From UHGV virus genome UHGV-0070165: 41,955 nucleotides of DNA; one strand, 5' to 3'. Shown one piece after another: positions 50-17,544 of this stretch. Position 1 is the stretch's first letter. Each line of letters begins with the position of its first letter. The stretch is from a virus. The notes below the pieces were generated by a model. The model was not told the DNA's origin. It did no database searches and was given only the letters and a program-made list of their open reading frames with translations. The position numbers and the translations under genes were made by a program.

Positions 50-1213
50 TTACGCCTTCTTTATATCCTCCATAATTCCAGAGTGGGACATATTTGGGAC
101 ATTATCACCAAAAATGTCGTCTATTTTCCTCGCATGCTCTGTCAAATGATTAGGCGCAAGGTGAGCATACCTACGAACCATTTCTATGGACTCCCATCCG
201 CCCATTTCCTGAAGCACTGATAATGGGACGCCTGACTGAATCAGCCAGCTTGCCCAGGTGTGTCTGAGGTCATGGAAACGGAAATCTTCAATTCCTGCAC
301 GACGACAAGCTGATAGCCATGATGTCTTGCTGTCGATGCGCATCTTCCTGACCGCAGGCGTTGATGTTCCATCTGCTCGCTTAGCCGCCTTGGTATGTAC
401 AAACACCCATTTGTGATGCTTGCCTATTTGATCACGCAACACTTTACAGGCGGTATCGTTCAGCGCCACACCAATGGCGCGGTTTGATTTGCTCTCTTCT
501 GGATTCACCCAGGCAACTCGTCGCTGCATGTCGATTTGTTGCCATTCCAGATTTATGATGTTCGACTTTCTCAGACCAGTTGCCAGCGCAAACTTGACGA
601 CAGATTTCAGTGGTTCGGGGCACTCATCAATAAGGCGTTTTGCTTCCTCCTTTTCCAGCCATCTGACTCGCTTGTTTCTGACCGCTGGTATCTTGATGAC
701 AGGCGCTTTTTCCAGCCACTTCCAGTCGCGTTCTGCAGCACGGAGAATAGCCTTTATCATGGCAAGATGCTTTGCCTTTGTCTGAGTTGATACTGGCTTT
801 GGTTCATAAACAGGCAGTTCTTTACCTTTCCTGATGGCGGCCTGAACTTTCTGTTTCCATATTTCTTTCGTCTTTCTGTTATGCATTCTGCTTACAGCAG
901 AGTAAATCTTTGCCTCCGAGATATCTTTAAGCCTTATACCCTCAAAATGTTCAAGCCAGAACTCAATCCGGCTTTTATCTGAATCGAGAGATTTTTTATC
1001 AGCTTTTTCCTCAAGCCATCTTAGGCAGGCCTCTTCAAAAGTGACATCAGGTAAATCCCCTAGCTTTTCTACTCGCCAGAGTTCTGCTTTTCGCTTGTCG
1101 TGCAACTCCTGAGCTTGCCGCTTGTCCTTTGTGCCAAGAGATTCCTTAATTCGTTTCCCGCCCGGGAGCGAATACGAGGCATACCATATTTCATTTCTGC
1201 GGAAGAGTGACAT
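50..1213 (-). CDS. int: Phage tyrosine integrase (DLP12 IntD-like)
   Basis: 387 aa ORF; C-terminal catalytic region with R...HDLRHT...Y motifs; positioned next to the tRNA 3' end. Confidence 0.9.
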
Positions 1214-5481: not shown

Positions 5482-5862
5482 TCAGTCAGCCCAACCTGAT
5501 TTCGAGTTTATTTGGGTTTCTGACATTGTGTATTTCTTAATCGTGTCATCGTTAAAAAGAATAGTAAGTTCTTTTTTCGTACCGTTCGTTCCATTATGGA
5601 ATAATCCATAGAATGGAATAAAAGTGGTGCCATTCACTTTTACTTTTGCAAAGGCGTACTTCCAGATCTCGTTTCCACTGTCAGTATATGAAACAGCATC
5701 AGGAGAACCAAAGTAAGATTTAACCTCATTCTTGGTTGTTTTACCTTCCTGAAGTTTAGACTGGACACTAATTTCAGTTTCATTTTTGAGTTGCTGGTTG
5801 CCTGAAGAAGCACACCCAGCCAATACAGATGCCATCATGGCAGCGATTAGGATTTTTCTCAT
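5482..5862 (-). CDS. Predicted lipoprotein (signal peptide with LAGC lipobox)
   Basis: N-terminus MRKILIAAMMASVLAGC; TATAAT-like box about 20 nt upstream; own terminator downstream; lies downstream of cI where lambda carries rexAB. Confidence 0.7.
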   Translation of the reverse strand: MRKILIAAMMASVLAGCASSGNQQLKNETEISVQSKLQEGKTTKNEVKSYFGSPDAVSYTDSGNEIWKYAFAKVKVNGTTFIPFYGLFHNGTNGTKKELTILFNDDTIKKYTMSETQINSKSGWAD

Positions 5863-8741: not shown

Positions 8742-9439
8742 AAAACATCGCCGCACAGATGGTTAACTTTGACCGTGAGCAGATGCGCCGGATCGCCAAC
8801 AATATGCCGGAACAGTACGACGAAAAGCCGCAGGTACAGCAGGTAGCGCAGATCATCAACGGTGTGTTCAGCCAGTTACTGGCAACTTTCCCGGCGAGCC
8901 TGGCTAACCGTGACCAGAATGAACTGAACGAAATCCGCCGCCAGTGGGTTCTGGCTTTCCGGGAAAACGGGATCACCACAATGGAACAGGTTAACGCTGG
9001 AATGCGCGTAGCCCGTCGGCAGAATCGACCATTCCTGCCATCACCCGGGCAGTTTGTCGCCTGGTGCCGGGAAGAAGCATCTGTTAACGCCGGGCTGCCA
9101 AACGTCAGCGAGCTGGTTGATATGGTTTACGAGTATTGCCGGAAGCGTGGCCTGTATCCGGATGCAGAGTCTTATCCGTGGAAATCGAACGCGCATTACT
9201 GGTTGGTTACCAACTTGTACCAGAACATGCGGGCCAATGCGCTGGCTGACGCGGAATTACGGCGCAAGGCTGCCGATGAACTGACCTGTATGACAGCGCG
9301 AATTAACCGTGGTGAGACGATACCTGAACCAGTAAAACAACTTCCTGTTATGGGCGGTAGACCTCTAAATCGTGCACAGGCTCTGGCGAAGATCGCAGAA
9401 ATTAAAGCTAAGTTCGGACTGAAAGGAGCAAGTGTATGA
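8738..9439 (+). CDS. P: Replication protein P (DnaB helicase loader)
   Basis: 233 aa; recognised as near-identical to lambda P. Confidence 0.95.
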   Translation: MKNIAAQMVNFDREQMRRIANNMPEQYDEKPQVQQVAQIINGVFSQLLATFPASLANRDQNELNEIRRQWVLAFRENGITTMEQVNAGMRVARRQNRPFLPSPGQFVAWCREEASVNAGLPNVSELVDMVYEYCRKRGLYPDAESYPWKSNAHYWLVTNLYQNMRANALADAELRRKAADELTCMTARINRGETIPEPVKQLPVMGGRPLNRAQALAKIAEIKAKFGLKGASV

Positions 9440-9738
9440 CGGGCAAAGAGGCAATTATTCATTACCTGGGGACGCATAAGAGCTTCTGTGCACAGGACGT
9501 TGCCGCGGTAACAGGCGCAACCGTAACCAGCATAAATCAGGCTGCGGCTAAAATGGCGCGGGCAGGAATCCTGGTCGTTGATGGTAAGGTCTGGCGAACG
9601 GTGTATTACCGGTTCGCTACCAGAGAAGAACGGGAAGGAAAGGTGAGCACGAATCTGATTTTTAAGGAGTGTCGCCAGAGTGCCGCGATGAAACGGGTAT
9701 TGAGGGTATATAAAAGAACATCAATGGGAACACAATGA
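9436..9738 (+). CDS. ren: Ren protein
   Basis: Sequence MTGKEAIIHYLGTH...KVWRTVYYRFATREERE recognised as lambda Ren-like. Confidence 0.85.
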   Translation: MTGKEAIIHYLGTHKSFCAQDVAAVTGATVTSINQAAAKMARAGILVVDGKVWRTVYYRFATREEREGKVSTNLIFKECRQSAAMKRVLRVYKRTSMGTQ

Positions 9739-9805
9739 TGAAACAGGTGAGTTGAGTTCAAACTGTAGTACAATTCTCTCCAGTTTGAACAGGAAAGAAT
9801 ATGCT

Positions 9806-10138
9806 ATGAACCCTTATATTTATCTTGGTGGTGCAATACTTGCAGAGGTCATTGGTACAACCTTAATGAAGTTTTCAGAAGGTTTTACACGGTTATGGCC
9901 ATCTGTTGGTACAATTATTTGTTATTGTGCATCATTCTGGTTATTAGCTCAGACGCTGGCTTATATTCCTACAGGGATTGCTTATGCTATCTGGTCAGGA
10001 GTCGGTATTGTCCTGATTAGCTTACTGTCATGGGGATTTTTCGGCCAACGGCTGGACCTGCCAGCCATTATAGGCATGATGTTGATTTGTGCCGGTGTGT
10101 TGATTATTAATTTATTGTCACGAAGCACACCACATTAA
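9806..10138 (+). CDS. emrE: Small multidrug resistance efflux transporter EmrE
   Basis: 110 aa from MNPYIYLGGAILAEVIGTTLMKFSEGF...; four predicted transmembrane helices; recognised as E. coli EmrE. Confidence 0.95.
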   Translation: MNPYIYLGGAILAEVIGTTLMKFSEGFTRLWPSVGTIICYCASFWLLAQTLAYIPTGIAYAIWSGVGIVLISLLSWGFFGQRLDLPAIIGMMLICAGVLIINLLSRSTPH

Positions 10139-10168
10139 AATAATTTGTTTCTAAACGACTAAAATATG

Positions 10169-10200
10169 GAGGCTCTTATATTTATATGAGCCTCGTTTTA
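10169..10200 (+). terminator. Rho-independent terminator after emrE
   Basis: Hairpin GAGGCTC-loop-GAGCCTC followed by GTTTTA. Confidence 0.55.
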
Positions 10201-10392
10201 TGCTTCTTGTTAATGTCTTTATTTTTTATGTATTCTTTTGTGCTTTCAAGATTATGGCGTAAGAAAATTGCAATACGATTATTGTTGTATATTCAAGATA
10301 ATGTGACCTTAATTGTCTTTTTAAATAAAAAATAAACAAAAATTATATCCCACCACTAAGGTTTATAAAAGCATACGTTAGCAGGTGTCACC

Positions 10393-11919
10393 ATGAAAAA
10401 AGCCATAGCATATATGCGATTTTCATCACCAGGTCAGATGTCTGGCGACTCATTAAACCGACAGAGAAGACTTATTGCTGAATGGTTAAAGGTAAATAGT
10501 GATTATTATCTTGATACCATAACATATGAAGATTTAGGATTAAGTGCATTCAAAGGAAAGCATGCACAATCAGGAGCTTTTTCGGAATTTTTAGATGCTA
10601 TAGAGCATGGTTATATATTGCCAGGAACTACATTGTTAGTTGAAAGTCTGGACAGACTTTCAAGAGAAAAAGTCGGTGAAGCGATTGAACGTCTGAAATT
10701 GATTTTGAATCACGGTATTGATGTTATAACTCTTTGCGACAATACAGTCTATAATATTGACTCTTTGAATGAGCCATATTCATTAATAAAAGCCATACTT
10801 ATAGCACAAAGGGCAAATGAAGAAAGCGAGATAAAGTCAAGTCGGGTTAAATTATCATGGAAGAAAAAACGGCAGGATGCACTGGAATCAGGTACGATTA
10901 TGACGGCGTCTTGTCCGAGATGGCTCTCCTTAGATGACAAAAGAACGGCTTTTGTTCCAGACCCCGACAGGGTGAAAACTATTGAGCTAATTTTTAAACT
11001 CAGGATGGAAAGGCGCTCATTGAATGCAATAGCCAAGTATTTAAATGATCATGCTGTAAAGAATTTCTCAGGAAAAGAAAGTGCATGGGGACCTTCTGTA
11101 ATTGAAAAATTATTAGCGAATAAAGCTCTGATAGGTATATGCGTACCTTCATATCGTGCAAGAGGGAAAGGGATAAGTGAAATCGCTGGCTATTATCCCA
11201 GAGTCATATCAGATGATTTGTTTTACGCTGTACAGGAAATTCGGTTGGCACCTTTTGGTATTAGCAATAGTAGCAAGAATCCTATGCTAATAAATCTACT
11301 TCGAACAGTTATGAAGTGTGAGGCTTGTGGTAATACCATGATTGTTCATGCGGTATCTGGAAGTTTGCATGGCTATTATGTTTGTCCGATGAGAAGATTA
11401 CATCGATGTGACAGGCCATCAATAAAAAGAGATTTGGTTGATTATAATATCATTAATGAATTGCTTTTTAATTGTAGCAAAATTCAACCAGTTGAAAACA
11501 AGAAAGATGCTAATGAAACTTTAGAGTTAAAAATTATTGAGCTTCAGATGAAAATTAATAATTTAATCGTTGCATTGTCTGTCGCGCCTGAAGTTACCGC
11601 TATAGCAGAGAAAATAAGACTATTAGATAAGGAATTACGAAGGGCTTCGGTATCATTGAAAACTTTGAAGAGTAAAGGTGTAAATTCATTCAGTGATTTT
11701 TATGCTATTGACTTAACCAGTAAAAATGGACGAGAGTTATGCCGTACACTTGCCTATAAAACATTCGAAAAAATCATAATTAATACGGATAATAAAACCT
11801 GTGATATCTATTTTATGAATGGCATTGTTTTTAAACACTATCCTTTAATGAAAGTAATATCCGCCCAGCAGGCGATAAGTGCTCTCAAATATATGGTTGA
11901 TGGTGAGATTTATTTCTAA
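10393..11919 (+). CDS. ybcK: Large serine recombinase (resolvase/invertase-type catalytic domain plus recombinase and zinc-ribbon domains)
   Basis: 508 aa; N-terminus AIAYMRFSSPGQ...RQ with the catalytic-serine motif; Cys-rich CEACGN...CPMRRLHRCD; AT-rich codon usage. Confidence 0.85.
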   Translation: MKKAIAYMRFSSPGQMSGDSLNRQRRLIAEWLKVNSDYYLDTITYEDLGLSAFKGKHAQSGAFSEFLDAIEHGYILPGTTLLVESLDRLSREKVGEAIERLKLILNHGIDVITLCDNTVYNIDSLNEPYSLIKAILIAQRANEESEIKSSRVKLSWKKKRQDALESGTIMTASCPRWLSLDDKRTAFVPDPDRVKTIELIFKLRMERRSLNAIAKYLNDHAVKNFSGKESAWGPSVIEKLLANKALIGICVPSYRARGKGISEIAGYYPRVISDDLFYAVQEIRLAPFGISNSSKNPMLINLLRTVMKCEACGNTMIVHAVSGSLHGYYVCPMRRLHRCDRPSIKRDLVDYNIINELLFNCSKIQPVENKKDANETLELKIIELQMKINNLIVALSVAPEVTAIAEKIRLLDKELRRASVSLKTLKSKGVNSFSDFYAIDLTSKNGRELCRTLAYKTFEKIIINTDNKTCDIYFMNGIVFKHYPLMKVISAQQAISALKYMVDGEIYF

Positions 11920-12383
11920 ATAATGATCTCGGATTTTAAGTTATGCTATGGTGATAAAGTGCAAGACAGAATTAATTATCTTTGACGAAACTTAATGGGT
12001 AATTACTTTGTTTGCTCCCACAAGCGAGTTTTGTACGGCTGTATTGGGGTAGTAAATGAGCTATACAATCTTAATCATTTGTTAGGTGAGAACTCTTGGT
12101 CGCAGATTCAAATACTGAAAATACGTGACAAATTATTATGAGCAAAATGGTGTATGTCACGTATTTTGAATGGTAGGTTAAAAAATAACACCGACTTTCG
12201 TAGGTATTACTAATAATAAAGCAGAGTTTTTAGATAGTATCAATGTGCTTTGTGTATATTGTGGCAAATAATTGGGTTGGGGGTACAATTGTGATTGCTT
12301 TTGCATGAACATTGCGCCTTTATGCATAATGAGATAAAGGAATATCAAATAAAATAACGATAGGTCATAACAAAGAGGTTTTT

Positions 12384-12935
12384 ATGAAAACACTTATCGT
12401 TTCAACTGTATTGGCATTCATAACATTTTCTGCGCAGGCTGCAGCATTTCAGGTCACTAGTAATGAAATAAAAACAGGAGAGCAACTTACAACGTCTCAT
12501 GTCTTTTCTGGATTTGGGTGTGAAGGTGGTAATACATCGCCCTCATTAACCTGGTCTGGTGTTCCTGAAGGTACCAAAAGCTTTGCCGTAACTGTATATG
12601 ATCCAGATGCACCTACAGGCAGTGGTTGGTGGCATTGGACTGTTGTTAATATTCCAGCAACAGTAACATATTTGCCCGTTGATGCAGGGAGACGTGATGG
12701 AACAAAACTGCCGACTGGTGCTGTTCAAGGCCGAAATGATTTTGGCTATGCTGGGTTTGGTGGCGCATGTCCTCCTAAAGGAGATAAACCACATCATTAC
12801 CAGTTTAAAGTATGGGCTCTAAAAACTGAAAAGATTCCTGTAGATTCTAACTCCAGCGGAGCGTTAGTTGGTTATATGCTTAATGCTAATAAAATCGCAA
12901 CCGCTGAGATAACACCAGTTTATGAGATAAAGTAG
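12384..12935 (+). CDS. ybcL: Secreted PEBP/RKIP-family (YbhB/YbcL) protein
   Basis: 183 aa; signal peptide ending AQA; recognised as DLP12 YbcL. Confidence 0.85.
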   Translation: MKTLIVSTVLAFITFSAQAAAFQVTSNEIKTGEQLTTSHVFSGFGCEGGNTSPSLTWSGVPEGTKSFAVTVYDPDAPTGSGWWHWTVVNIPATVTYLPVDAGRRDGTKLPTGAVQGRNDFGYAGFGGACPPKGDKPHHYQFKVWALKTEKIPVDSNSSGALVGYMLNANKIATAEITPVYEIK

Positions 12936-12944
12936 GGTGAGAGT

Positions 12945-13742
12945 ATGCTGGCAAGAGGTAAGACTAACTTAAAGATCGAAGAAATACGGATGCATAAACA
13001 TCATGAGATTCATAGGGTTAAGCCTCTTATGCCAGCTTTGTGTCGTATCCGTCAGGGAAAGAAAGTTATCAATTGGGAGACGCATACTTTAACTGTTGAT
13101 AATAATCAAATAATATTATTTCCTTGTGGTTATGAATTTTATATTGAGAATTATCCTGAAGCAGGGCTTTATCTTGCAGAAATGCTTTACTTACCCATTG
13201 ATTTAATTGAGAGTTTCCAAAAACTTTATACGGTAACTGATCAAATACGTAACAAAACAAGTTTCTTTTTACCTCAGAATCCTGAGTTAATATATTGTTG
13301 GGAGCAACTAAAAACATCTGTTTCCCGAGGCTTCTCAACTAAAATTCAGGAGCACTTAGCAATGGGCGTTCTACTTTCGTTAGGAGTGAATCATGTTAAT
13401 CATTTACTTTTATCATATAGTAAACAATCATTGATAAGTCGTTGTTATAACCTGCTGCTATCCGAACCCGGCACAAAATGGACAGCAAACAAGGTTGCTC
13501 GATATCTCTACATTTCTGTTTCTACATTACATCGCCGTCTAGCAAGCGAGGGGGTAAGTTTCCAAAGTATACTGGACGATGTGAGGTTAAATAATGCGTT
13601 GTCTGCTATACAAACGACGGTAAAACCTATAAGCGAGATTGCCAGAGAAAATGGTTATAAGTGTCCTTCTCGTTTTACTGAAAGATTTCATAATCGTTTT
13701 AATATAACACCAAGAGAGATAAGAAAAGCTTCCAGAGAGTAA
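12945..13742 (+). CDS. ybcM: AraC-family transcriptional regulator
   Basis: 265 aa; C-terminal AraC-type HTH (…[21 protein letters not shown]…[24 protein letters not shown]). Confidence 0.8.
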
Positions 13743-13956
13743 AAGTGTTTTAAGAAGGAGCAATTCTATCGATTTTGATTTTGGGAAATCAACACGGCAT
13801 AATTATGTCACCGGAGCCTGAACAACTCCGGTGACTTCTGCGCTAAACGGGGACGTTTATGCGCACATACAATCCAAACTCTCTTCTCCCTTCACAGATG
13901 CAGAAATGCACCTGCAATTCTTTGCATCTAGCGTTTGACCTCTGCGGAGGGGAAGC

Positions 13957-14412
13957 GTGAACCTCTCACAAGACGGCATCAAATTACATCGCGGCAACTT
14001 CACCGCTATCGGTCGGCAGATCCAGCCTTATCTGGAGGAGGGCAAATGCTTTCGCATGGTGCTTAAACCGTGGCGTGAGAAACGCAGTCTTTCCCAGAAT
14101 GCACTCAGCCACATGTGGTACAGCGAAATCAGTGAATACCTCATCAGCAGGGGTAAAACGTTCGCCACTCCAGCTTGGGTAAAAGATGCTCTCAAACACA
14201 CATATCTCGGTTATGAAACCAAAGACCTGGTTGATGTCCTAACCGGTGATATCACCACTATCCAGTCGTTACGCCATACCTCCGATCTTGATACCGGAGA
14301 GATGTATGTCTTCCTGTGTAAGGTTGAAGCCTGGGCGATGAATATTGGTTGCCACCTGACTATTCCACAGAGCTGCGAGTTCCAGCTGCTGCGCGACAAG
14401 CAGGAGGCGTAA
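13957..14412 (+). CDS. ninB: NinB recombination protein
   Basis: 151 aa; recognised as NinB/YbcN-like; GTG start after GGAGGGGAAGC. Confidence 0.8.
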
Positions 14413-14582
14413 TGGCTACACCGCTTATTCGTGTCATGAACGGACACATCTACAGAGTACCAAATCGTCGTAAGCGTAAACCTGAGCTGAAGCCATCCGA
14501 AATACCAACACTGCTCGGATATACCGCCAGCTTGGTTGATAAAAAATGGTTGCGACTGGCAGCAAGGAGGAGTCATGGCTGA
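14412..14582 (+). CDS. ninE: NinE-like small protein
   Basis: 56 aa from [24 protein letters not shown]...; ATG overlaps the ninB stop (TAATG); position in nin region. Confidence 0.65.
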   Translation: MATPLIRVMNGHIYRVPNRRKRKPELKPSEIPTLLGYTASLVDKKWLRLAARRSHG

Positions 14583-14865
14583 TTTGAGAAAAGCAGCGCG
14601 TGGTCGGGAATGCCAGGTAAGAATCCCTGGCGTATGTAATGGCAACCCTGAAACGTCTGTACTGGCACATATCCGGCTGACTGGATTGTGCGGCACCGGT
14701 ACGAAACTGCCAGACCTGATTGCCACCATTGCATGTTCTGCCTGCCACGACGAAATCGACCGCCGCACGCATTTTGTTGACGCTGGATATGCAAAAGAAT
14801 GCGCGCTGGAAGGTATGGCGAGAACACAGGTTATCTGGCTGAAAGAGGGGGTTATTAAGGCGTGA
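14575..14865 (+). CDS. ybcO: YbcO-like metal-binding nuclease (DUF1364)
   Basis: 96 aa from [21 protein letters not shown]...; AAGGAGG Shine-Dalgarno; conserved cysteines. Confidence 0.75.
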
Positions 14866-15224
14866 ATACCTACAGCATCACATTACCCTGGCCTCCGAGC
14901 AATAATCGCTATTACCGCCATAATCGCGGGCGCACGCACGTCAGCGCAGAGGGGCAGGCATACCGCGATAACGTCGCCCGAATCATTAAAAACGCAATGC
15001 TGGATATCGGCCTGGCTATGCCTGTGAAAATCCGCATTGAGTGCCACATGCCGGATCGCCGTCGCCGTGACCTGGATAATCTGCAAAAAGCCGCTTTTGA
15101 CGCACTCACTAAAGCAGGTTTCTGGCTGGATGATGCTCAGGTCGTTGATTACCGCGTTGTGAAGATGCCTGTTACCAAAGGTGGGAGGCTGGAACTGACC
15201 ATCACCGAAATGGGGAATGAATGA
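14862..15224 (+). CDS. rusA: Holliday junction resolvase RusA
   Basis: 120 aa; recognised as RusA. Confidence 0.9.
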
Positions 15225-15361
15225 TGTTTGAGTTTTATATGGCAGAACTTCTTCGCCACCGCTGGGGGCATCTGCGCTTATATCGTTTCCCCGGTTCTGT
15301 TTTGACCGATTACCGAATACTGAAGAATTACGCCAAAACCCTGACAGGAGCAGGAGTATGA
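15221..15361 (+). CDS. ylcG: Small protein YlcG-like (46 aa)
   Basis: Short ORF ([23 protein letters not shown]...) that I translated by hand; its ATG overlaps the rusA stop; below the ORF-track length cutoff. Confidence 0.5.
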
Positions 15362-15446
15362 AGTCAGAGATAACAATCAACTAATACTGTTTTGTTGATT
15401 TTTGCTTGTAATTGGCGTTCTGGTCTGATTTTTGTGGAGTAAGTTG

Positions 15447-15830
15447 ATGCGTGATATTCAGATGGTTCTTGAGCGTTGGGGAGCGTGGGCGGCTAATAAT
15501 CATGAAGATGTGACCTAGTCGTCCATTGCCGCCGGTTTTAAGGGATTAATTCCTTCAAAAGTAAAATCTCGCCCGCAATGTTGTGACGATGACGCGATGA
15601 TCATTTGCGGGTGCATGGCCCGTCTGAAAAAGAACAACAGCGATTTGCACGATTTATTAGTAGATTATTATGTAGTCGGTATGACATTCATGTCACTGGC
15701 AGGTAAGCATTGCTGCTCTGATGGTTATATCGGGAAAAGGTTACAAAAGGCTGAGGGCATAATTGAAGGGATGTTAATGGCATTAGATATCCGGTTAGAG
15801 ATGGATATCGTTGTTAATAACTCTAATTAA
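15447..15830 (+). pseudogene. quuD: Late antiterminator Q (QuuD-like) interrupted by an in-frame TAG at codon 24 (15516-15518)
   Basis: ATG at 15447 with GGAG Shine-Dalgarno; 23 codons (MRDIQMVLERWGAWAANNHEDVT) then TAG; the same frame continues without further stops to 15830, a 127-codon frame; Cys-rich zinc-binding region downstream. Confidence 0.7.
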
Positions 15831-15970
15831 TATGCCAATTGTTTACTAAAAATTATTAAAAATGGGGCGTTGAGACGCCCCCAAAAATAAAGGGTAATAT
15901 ATAACAGAAGGTTTATATAGTTAGAAGCAAGGTTGTGCTTCTAAAGGAAGTGGCTTGAGGGAGCCACTTA

Positions 15971-16012
15971 TATGTTGGGGAGGCAACGCCTCCCGCAACA
16001 TATCTTTTTCGT
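15971..16012 (+). terminator. Strong rho-independent terminator after the Q region (tR'-like); also flanks the nmpC 3' end
   Basis: Long hairpin ATATGTTGGGGAGGC-AAC-GCCTCCCGCAACATAT followed by CTTTTTC. Confidence 0.6.
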
Positions 16013-16019
16013 AATCAGA

Positions 16020-17117
16020 TTAGAACTGGTAAACCAGACCTACAGCAACGATGTCATCAGTGCTTACACCGAGTGCTTTAGTGAAGTCATTTTTGTCAAG
16101 CAGGTTGATTTTGTAATCAACGAAAGTAGACATATTTTTGTTGAAGTAATAGGTTGCACCTACATCAACATATTTGACTAAGTCCTGATCGCCCCATACT
16201 CCAAGATCCTTACCTTTAGATTGCAGGTAAGCAACGGACGGACGCAGACCGAAATCGAACTGATATTGTGCAACAGCTTCGAAGTTTTGGGCTTTATTAG
16301 CAACGAAGTGATCAGCAAATACAGTCATATTCTGGGTTTCAGAATAGGTAGTGGCCAGGTAAATGTTGTTAGCGTCATATTTCAGACCTGCGGCCCAAAC
16401 TTCTGCATTTTTACCGGAAGCAAATACTTCAGGAAGAACTTTCCCTGCATTAACTTGAGTGTCGGTACGATCAGATTTCGCATAAGTTGCACCGATACCG
16501 AATCCTTCGTATTCATAGGTAGCAGAGAAACCGAAGCCATCACCGTTACCTTCAGTGTAGTTATCGAAATCGCTACGATCGTTTTTGCCTTGGTACTGAG
16601 CAGCAAAGTTCAGACCATCAACCAGACCAAAGAAGTCGTTGTTACGATAGGTTGCAACACCAGTTGCACGTTGAGTCATGAACACGTCGGTTTGAGTCCA
16701 AGTGTCACCACCGAATTCTGGCAGGACGTCAGTCCACGCACCGATGTCGTATGCTACACCGTAGTTACGGCCGTAATCGATGGAGCCGTAGTCACCGAAT
16801 TTCAGGCCAGCGAAGGCAAGACGGGTTTTATCTTTGGAGGAACCTTGAGATTCAGCGCGGTTGCCTTTGAATTCATATTCCCACTGACCGAAACCAGTCA
16901 GTTGATCGTTGATTTGGGTTTCACCTTTGAAGCCAAGACGGGCATAAGTAGTATCACCATCATCTGCATCATTAGAGGAGAAGTAGTGCTTAGCATTAAC
17001 TTTCCCGTACAGATCCAGCTTGTTACTGTCTTTATTATAAATTTCAGCTGCCTGAGCAGACATCGCCATCAGTACTGATGCAGCTACAGCAGAAATTGCC
17101 ACTGTTAATTTTTTCAT
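16020..17117 (-). CDS. nmpC: OmpC/OmpF-family general porin (NmpC/Lc-like), intact; start set at [11 protein letters not shown]
   Basis: Signal peptide ending SAQA; C-terminal F (…VGLVYQF) typical of outer-membrane beta-barrels; convergent to the late operon. Confidence 0.9.
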
Positions 17118-17544
17118 CGTGAGCCCTTTTTTTGAACTATTATTAAAAAATGATGTCACTGCGCGATAAATATTCATCTAATCAATGTGATTATTTCAAG
17201 ATGTAAGTTTTGGTTTCTCGTTTGATTTGTGAAGTAGATCTCTATTTTTATCTGAACTTTTTTCTATCGAATCCTATTCATGGCTCTTGGCTGAATAAAA
17301 ATAAATCTATTAGCCAATTTATATTAACGGCTGTTATTTATAAGTGCTCTATAATTTTAAGGTTCAATTTAAACCGGCTAAAAATAACACTGGAAATTAT
17401 TTGTTGGTTATTTGTTGAGATTTGCTTATGTATTTGTAGTGGTGTTTTCAATACTCGGTAGCATTCTCGCAAATATCATTTAGTGGTTTACGTACGTAAA
17501 AAATTGGTTATGCTGTTAAGAGTGGTTACTTCGTCACACAGCTT

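Follow-up and report, generated by a model that had tools for sequence, protein, structure and literature searches.

A large serine recombinase, YbcK, in a composite cargo slot of a lambdoid prophage, and its relatives in small islands of Enterobacterales

The genes emrE, ybcK, ybcL and ybcM of Escherichia coli K-12 have long been annotated as part of the DLP12 prophage, and neither large serine integrases nor cargo hotspots of phages are new as kinds of system. In K-12, a NusG-dependent Rho terminator in the 5' untranslated region (leader) of ybcK keeps the gene silent (PMC4150792). Our literature searches turned up this Rho-terminator work and a study of sabinene tolerance, and no functional study of YbcK was found. 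Here we analysed the same genes in the virus genome UHGV-0070165, a stretch of 41,955 nucleotides (hereafter, the window) that holds a complete lambdoid prophage with RecT/YqaJ recombination genes, a CI-type repressor and the replication genes O and P. Its genes, their order and their flanks are those of DLP12, with the cargo region 99.9% identical to that of K-12 and 100% identical to that of one chicken isolate of E. coli. The initial annotation treated positions 9739 to 13956 as one AT-rich island, possibly a captured mobile element, in which ybcK supplied a second recombinase of unexplained function. What the present analysis adds is that the modules of this stretch assort independently, that a related locus at fliE is a prophage remnant reduced to its cargo, and that the YbcK family includes integrases of very small islands, some of them lodged in phage genes with restoration of the target.

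The ybcK gene (10393–11919, plus strand) encodes a protein of 508 amino acids that matched the Pfam families Resolvase, Recombinase and Zn_ribbon_recom (catalytic domain PF00239 at 5.5e-19, together with PF07508 and PF13408), and it matched PHROG 95 'integrase' at 4e-120. Across 24 family members, the catalytic residues R9, S11, Q15, D87, R88, R91, R140 and E143/E144 were invariant, as were the zinc-ribbon cysteines C309, C312, C331 and C339. A search of solved structures with the single YbcK sequence gave no result; the family profile matched the C-terminal domains of the A118 integrase (4kis, residues 39–320, coiled-coil region included; 5.6e-16) and also the N-terminal catalytic domain of the TP901-1 integrase. 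YbcK thus combines a resolvase-type catalytic domain, a recombinase domain, a four-cysteine zinc ribbon and a coiled-coil insert, the domain set of large serine recombinases of the integrase type. Compared with the ybcK gene of the phage Perceval, that of the window showed 39 synonymous and 12 non-synonymous differences, giving a ratio of non-synonymous to synonymous substitution rates (dN/dS) of 0.077, on a par with the 0.061 of replication gene P. The full-length open reading frame (ORF), with its invariant catalytic residues, was present in approximately 1,400 genomes and in plaque-forming phages. By these results, YbcK is a large serine recombinase of the phage-integrase kind, with its catalytic residues intact, and selection maintains it.

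The clearest indication of what such a protein does came from its relatives. In Mixta, Serratia, Leclercia and Rahnella, we identified islands of 7–10 kb and low G+C content (loci L114–L117, from about 9948 to 17239–21050) whose first gene encodes a recombinase 39% identical to YbcK. These islands split hofB, a type II/IV secretion ATPase gene that adjoins guaC, at about codon 311. The part encoding the C-terminal residues 311–457 stops 53 bp short of the recombinase ATG, and the part encoding the N-terminus lies with ppdD at the other end of the island, 7–10 kb away. As cargo they bear AbiTii gene pairs or other genes, together with a small resolvase. Both attachment (att) sites of the integrated element, attL and attR, could be read directly, and the reconstructed phage-type site, attP, is an imperfect dyad, as expected of a serine integrase site. 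Between Mixta and Serratia, the block of 96% identity comprised nothing but the recombinase gene (−78 to +14). In these four enterobacterial genera, hofB is accordingly a conserved integration target for defence islands with a serine integrase.

Two further relatives were found inside phage genes. In one locus (L012), a recombinase with 59% identity to YbcK forms, with KGG and DinI genes, an islet of 2.98 kb that interrupts DUF1367, a gene in the nin region of a lambdoid phage. This islet is flanked by a direct repeat of 229 bp with 82.5% DNA identity and 58 of 59 amino acids identical; the islet thus brings its own copy of the 5' end of the DUF1367 gene. In a Pantoea locus (L120; 48% identity), an islet of 2.9 kb lies within replication gene P, where the displaced 3' part of P (residues 76–229) precedes the recombinase gene and is riddled with stop codons, and the islet-borne copy keeps P intact. 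In all these islands of relatives, the att junction was located 50–350 bp upstream of the recombinase gene, with the cargo downstream. The closest outgroup clade (60–61% identity) repeatedly showed the order recombinase–DinI–DUF1367–NinG–Q, that is, at the left edge of the lambdoid nin region and near variable cargo. Other members of the family were located after tail-fibre genes at prophage ends or on plasmids, and some were the last prophage gene beside host DNA, next to tmRNA/smpB in Atlantibacter and lepA in Erwinia. The relatives of YbcK in other Enterobacterales are thus integrases of small cargo islands, some of which sit in phage genes and restore their target.

We then compared the surroundings of ybcK in the window with those in other phages. 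The G+C content of 9739–13956 was indeed low (0.368, against 0.509 for O–P–ren and 0.487 for the nin genes), a drop far outside local fluctuation. Homology with phages carrying other cargo stopped at 9702–9710, in the last codons of ren (9436–9738, plus strand; annotated Ren in related phages), which forms the conserved left flank. It resumed exactly at 13773/13774 and not at 13957, the start of ybcN (13957–14412, plus strand). This gene, the first of the nin region and the right flank, encodes a NinB-like protein (NCBIfam PRK09741, 4e-83) that scored 22.8 bits against Pfam NinB, slightly under the cut-off. The slot therefore has borders at about 9702–9730 on the left and 13773/13774 on the right, both of which are common to unrelated cargo: PD-lambda-1 and a Rha-like gene in PhiR26_1, an acyltransferase and a lipoprotein in PhiR30_1, and three small ORFs in O55:H7. 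Alternative, unrelated cargo between the same conserved flanks, with a G+C content below that of the backbone, is what defines a phage moron or cargo hotspot, and the slot shows each of these features. The borders of the stretch thus do coincide with points of ordinary module exchange, a finding that the initial annotation had set down as speaking against a mobile element; the second sign that it named, degenerate catalytic residues, was not seen in YbcK.

Within these borders, the four genes named previously were confirmed by ORFs and family profiles, and they fell into separate segments, all on the plus strand. The emrE module (9730–10145) includes an inverted repeat in the promoter region (9756–9790) and the emrE ORF (9806–10138), the product of which matched NCBIfam EmrE at 3.6e-72 (239.7 bits, with a cut-off of 226); the module aligned at 91.9% to the chromosomal remnant at fliE described below. 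The ybcK leader (K5, 10146–10392) contains a terminator-like hairpin (10167–10195) and the small ORF ylcJ, and its left end marks the junction to the emrE–ybcL joint that lacks ybcK. Recombination directionality factors are not recognisable by sequence; ylcJ is the sole nearby candidate for one. The short 3' flank of ybcK (K3, 11920–11960) occurs in diverged forms common to all ybcK variants, and downstream of it the content changes, with breakpoints staggered by about 11 bp. The next segment (M3, 11961–12228; 268 bp) occurs solely where ybcK and ybcLM coexist, in 675 genomes and nowhere else. It contains the strongest local dyad, a perfect inverted repeat (arms of 13 nt, spacer of 24 nt) that spans 50 bp (12118–12167) and folds as RNA at −18.9 kcal/mol (z = −3.1). 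The ybcL–ybcM module (12229–13773) comprises ybcL (12384–12935), encoding a PEBP protein (Pfam PBP; NCBIfam PRK09818, 1e-120) with an N-terminus that reads as a signal peptide, and ybcM (12945–13742), encoding an AraC-type regulator (HTH_18); it aligned at 89.6% to the chromosomal remnant without ybcK. An Rfam scan of 9400–14500 gave no match.

The right border is formed by a conserved backbone element (13774–13956) that is common to all cargo variants and lies 5' of ybcN. It contains a promoter-like sequence, TTGATT-17-CATAAT, and a hairpin, GTCACCGGAG-CCTGAACAA-CTCCGGTGAC, with a 10-bp stem. The record of phage 82 (X92588) annotates −35/−10 signals and a regulator-binding site at this position. 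Hairpins with a conserved loop, (C/T)CTGAACA(A/G), and differing GC-rich stems were found at 13810–13838 of the window and at about 9626, 12612 and 15199 of L012, and they recur 5' of nin-region genes in unrelated lambdoid phages, making them a candidate terminator or nut-like element. In PhiR26_1, an internal copy of the 154-bp promoter/hairpin element, 80% identical, is located between PD-lambda-1 and the Rha-like operon (L018, 3733–3887), suggesting that the element acts as a repeated cassette boundary. Beside this internal copy, no footprint of the ybcK module was found in PhiR26_1.

To describe the variation of the slot, we retrieved 80 viral-contig loci, which were analysed together with sampled E. 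coli genomes. The order ren–emrE–leader–ybcK–[variable]–backbone–ybcN was observed in all 80 viral loci, and every locus inspected had the emrE–ybcK pair in this slot. The part 3' of ybcK occurred in at least 10 versions among the viral loci: ybcLM in 29, an alpha/beta hydrolase in 10 and nothing in seven, and elsewhere a truncated Rha-like ORF with one of several genes after it, BstA (PADLOC, 3.6e-121) among them. An HNH-like protein was also among the replacements of ybcLM in other ybcK phages. The join to the truncated Rha-like ORF goes back to one illegitimate event, which many variants have in common. Taken together, these observations indicate that the low-GC stretch is a composite of at least three independently assorting modules, which are swapped through recombination within the conserved flanks and, occasionally, through illegitimate joins. 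The view of a single 4.2-kb island is thus not upheld, since emrE, ybcK and ybcLM assort separately. A role of YbcK in capturing cassettes, through a site directly 3' of its gene, was also considered and rejected on account of the staggered breakpoints, the single Rha join and the use of the same slot in PhiR26_1, where the layout Rha–variable gene–backbone exists without ybcK and the variability is therefore not dependent on it. HUSEC2011 carries an emrE'-'ybcK fusion, a pseudogene.

A second arrangement of these genes was found on the chromosome. Approximately 2,600 E. coli genomes carry emrE–ybcL–ybcM–porin between fliE and yedK, without ybcK. The representative in E. coli MS20674 (L001, 8001–11803) aligned to 9730–10145, 12229–13949 and 15732–17400 of the window, and contains emrE, ybcL, ybcM, a 3' stub of Q and the nmpC-like porin gene, with all phage backbone genes deleted. 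The right junction of this locus falls within the coding sequence of Q, so that the locus is the remnant of a decayed DLP12-like prophage, and for the same reason it was ruled out as the ancestral source of the cargo. Against its emrE–ybcL joint, positions 10146–12228 of the window (2,083 bp: the leader, ybcK and 309 bp downstream) form a clean indel that starts 7–10 bp past the stop codon of emrE, 247 bp before the ybcK ATG, flanked only by AATAAT (6 bp). From sequence alone, this indel may be either an insertion in the phage lineage or a deletion in the remnant. In strain HH45 (L180), the fliE locus has been gene-converted by phage alleles.

The prophage already possesses a tyrosine integrase, its 'first' recombinase (50–1213, minus strand; PF00589 Phage_integrase, 5.2e-47), adjoined by an excisionase-like ORF (1069–1470; HTH_17 match), and Perceval likewise has a canonical tyrosine integrase and excisionase alongside an internal ybcK. 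The earlier statement that YbcK is a second, serine-type recombinase for which neither partner nor att site is apparent in the window was borne out by our searches. No attP/attB pair for YbcK was found in the window, in contrast to the attL/attR and dyad attP of the hofB islands, and no arms of the hofB-island att sites were found there either. Neither the 3' end of emrE nor the 5' end of ybcL recurred within the ybcK segment as a copy of the kind that would restore a target. The inverted repeat at 12118–12167 was rejected as the attP of YbcK, since half of the ybcK phages lack it; being restricted to the ybcLM variant, it is not a general YbcK site. A direct repeat, ATTTGTTTCTAAA at the left junction (10143–10155) and ATTTATTTCTAAA at the ybcK stop codon (11908–11920), was likewise set aside as a chance match.

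How ybcK came to its present position has to be judged from these data together. The geometry in E. coli fits that of the family, with a junction a few hundred bases upstream, low-GC cargo downstream and a position between replication and nin genes, so that an integrated islet is the best explanation. In this explanation, ybcK would be the integrase of a small islet that lodged after emrE and is now passively carried: an islet with ybcK would have inserted 7–10 bp past the emrE stop codon of a lambdoid phage, and ybcK would since then have travelled with the phage. In the lysogen, the Rho terminator in the leader would silence the gene. Because ybcK lies in the rightward early operon, it would be expected to be transcribed with that operon when N-type antitermination is active. 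Several observations weigh against this history. The relatives with proven targets are just 39–59% identical to YbcK. The joint without ybcK belongs to an old lineage (86–92% identity) of a decayed prophage, and a deletion of ybcK in that remnant would account for the indel equally well. Neither an att-like dyad nor a meaningful terminal repeat was found at the ends of the ybcK segment in the window, and the 13-nt direct repeat at its boundary was matched as well in 10 of 200 shuffles, with no consistent signal in 26 related loci. Among 5,426 complete E. coli genomes, an empty emrE–backbone joint was absent except in two internal-deletion derivatives; an empty ren–backbone joint was absent from the phage collection; and ybcK was absent away from emrE and this slot in any sampled context. 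None of the 5,426 genomes carried ybcK at the fliE emrE–ybcL joint, although many of them harbour both a ybcK phage and this joint. Judged as a self-mobile islet, the segment thus offers a clean 2.07-kb indel, but its ybcK-less joint exists only in the old decayed prophage, and no recent empty site or new insertion was detected. Since all direct tests of mobility in E. coli were negative, we favour the islet tentatively and rate it somewhat below an even chance. The proposal of a captured mobile element thus gained support from the relatives, which act as small-island integrases and in part reside in lambdoid genes, but neither an att site nor movement was found for YbcK itself.

An alternative history dispenses with the islet. 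The gene may have belonged to an emrE–ybcK–(cargo) block from the start and been deleted from the fliE remnant, being kept for a role other than mobility, such as recombination or interference with co-infecting or resident phages. The linkage of emrE and ybcK at every locus inspected, with no empty sites, is consistent with this idea, as are the origin of the fliE remnant by demonstrable deletions (its right junction being inside Q), the purifying selection without visible mobility and the abundance of defence cargo in the slot. However, PADLOC models gave no match at E <= 0.01 to YbcK, or to EmrE, YbcL and YbcM; we know of no defence system that consists of a lone large serine recombinase; and all precedents in the family point to integration. 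We therefore consider this role unlikely, though deserving of attention. Slightly less probable still, in our estimation, is that YbcK provides a second integration module for the whole phage, in which recombination between an attP close to ybcK and a secondary attB would permit lysogeny in hosts without the tyrosine-integrase site or within a resident prophage. An intact, selected protein of the integrase type would suit such a module, and so would the relatives that end prophages beside host DNA in Atlantibacter and Erwinia, the retention of ybcK beside a tyrosine integrase in functional phages such as Perceval, and a position in the early-right operon that would allow expression on infection. 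Prophages permuted at ybcK would then be expected, but none was found in the 80 viral loci and sampled genomes, in all of which emrE, leader and ybcK were contiguous; moreover, no attP-like dyad is conserved with ybcK, the repeat at 12118–12167 being missing from half of the ybcK phages.

Two other explanations appear much less likely than those just described. Decay in place, with ybcK a functionless relic of an old integration module, would agree with the missing partner site, the silence of the gene in K-12 and the occurrence of pseudogenes nearby, such as the HUSEC2011 fusion; it is hard to reconcile with a dN/dS of 0.077 over 51 substitutions and with the full-length, catalytically invariant gene found so widely, and we regard it as very improbable. 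The suggestion of the initial annotation that YbcK might be a DNA invertase, flipping a nearby segment to switch the expression of island genes, has in its favour that YbcK is a serine recombinase with a perfect 13-nt inverted repeat downstream of its gene. Its 508-residue integrase architecture is not that of the invertases of about 190 residues (Hin/Gin type), however, and the arms of the repeat are merely 24 nt apart. No pair of inverted repeats of at least 24 nt involved the low-GC stretch, and all segments had a single orientation in the 80 viral loci and the sampled genomes; of all the explanations, we give this one the least credence. Returning to the islet, a broader and bolder version can be formulated, in which recombinases of the YbcK family would define a class of mini integrative elements of 2–10 kb, each with a recombinase and one or a few cargo or defence genes. 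Such elements would use temperate-phage genomes as both targets and vehicles and insert into genes of the early-right operon with a replacement gene end, and the emrE–ybcK block of E. coli would be a still-active member that recombines at infection or induction. We put this generalization forward as doubtful.

Some features outside the slot were also noted. The gene for the Q antiterminator (quuD-type, 15447–15830) contains an in-frame TAG (amber) codon at 15516–15518, where Perceval has TGG. This would cut Q off at codon 24, and the prophage may thus be unable to turn on its late genes. Downstream of Q, the nmpC-like porin gene is intact in the window (16020–17177, minus strand; an ORF of 385 amino acids); the K-12 DLP12 copy is interrupted by an insertion sequence (IS) element. 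Adjoining the CI repressor gene is another ORF of low G+C content (5482–5862, minus strand; 126 amino acids), with a weak match to BamE-like lipoproteins, which is probably another moron. Perceval, a functional lambdoid phage, has the iron/manganese transporter operon sitABCD between its tail-fibre genes and integrase (L181, 22393–25842).

The distribution of ybcK gives these questions some weight, since approximately a quarter of sequenced E. coli (1,427 of 5,426 complete genomes), K-12 included, carry the intact gene. An active YbcK would add a new serine integrase, compact and from a host amenable to genetics, and would offer lambdoid phages a way of taking on cargo, be it an efflux pump or defence genes. 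An inert one would simply be a passenger, well preserved, in a cargo hotspot of the ordinary kind. What the comparison shows of the relatives holds in either case, and supplies concrete att sites that can be tested.

Finally, we compared the locus with the systems that it most resembles. Relative to DLP12, the window prophage is full-length, with head and tail genes, lacks the IS3 insertion and carries the Q amber codon, whereas the K-12 copy is defective. YbcK shares its three-domain architecture, catalytic residues and zinc ribbon with the integrases of A118/LI, TP901-1, phiC31 and Bxb1. Those integrases adjoin attP and are each the sole integrase of their phage, whereas YbcK is internal and second to a tyrosine integrase, with no attP/attB pair or directionality factor identified. 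Temperate-phage moron and defence hotspots, such as those of P2 and P4, show the same conserved flanks, low G+C content and alternative cargo including defence genes (here, PD-lambda-1 and BstA); such hotspots normally need no dedicated recombinase, and in this slot one item of the cargo is itself a recombinase. The hofB islands resemble the ybcK locus in having an integrase of the same family, with the recombinase gene first, variable low-GC cargo after it and the junction just upstream; they are chromosomal with both att junctions identified, while ybcK in E. coli resides in a phage without identifiable att junctions. The islets of L012 and L120 are closer in setting, with members of the same family (48–59% identity) placed between the replication and nin genes of the early-right operon and with a similar size of 2–3 kb. 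They differ in that they split a coding gene and carry a copy that restores it, whereas the ybcK junction is intergenic and without duplication.

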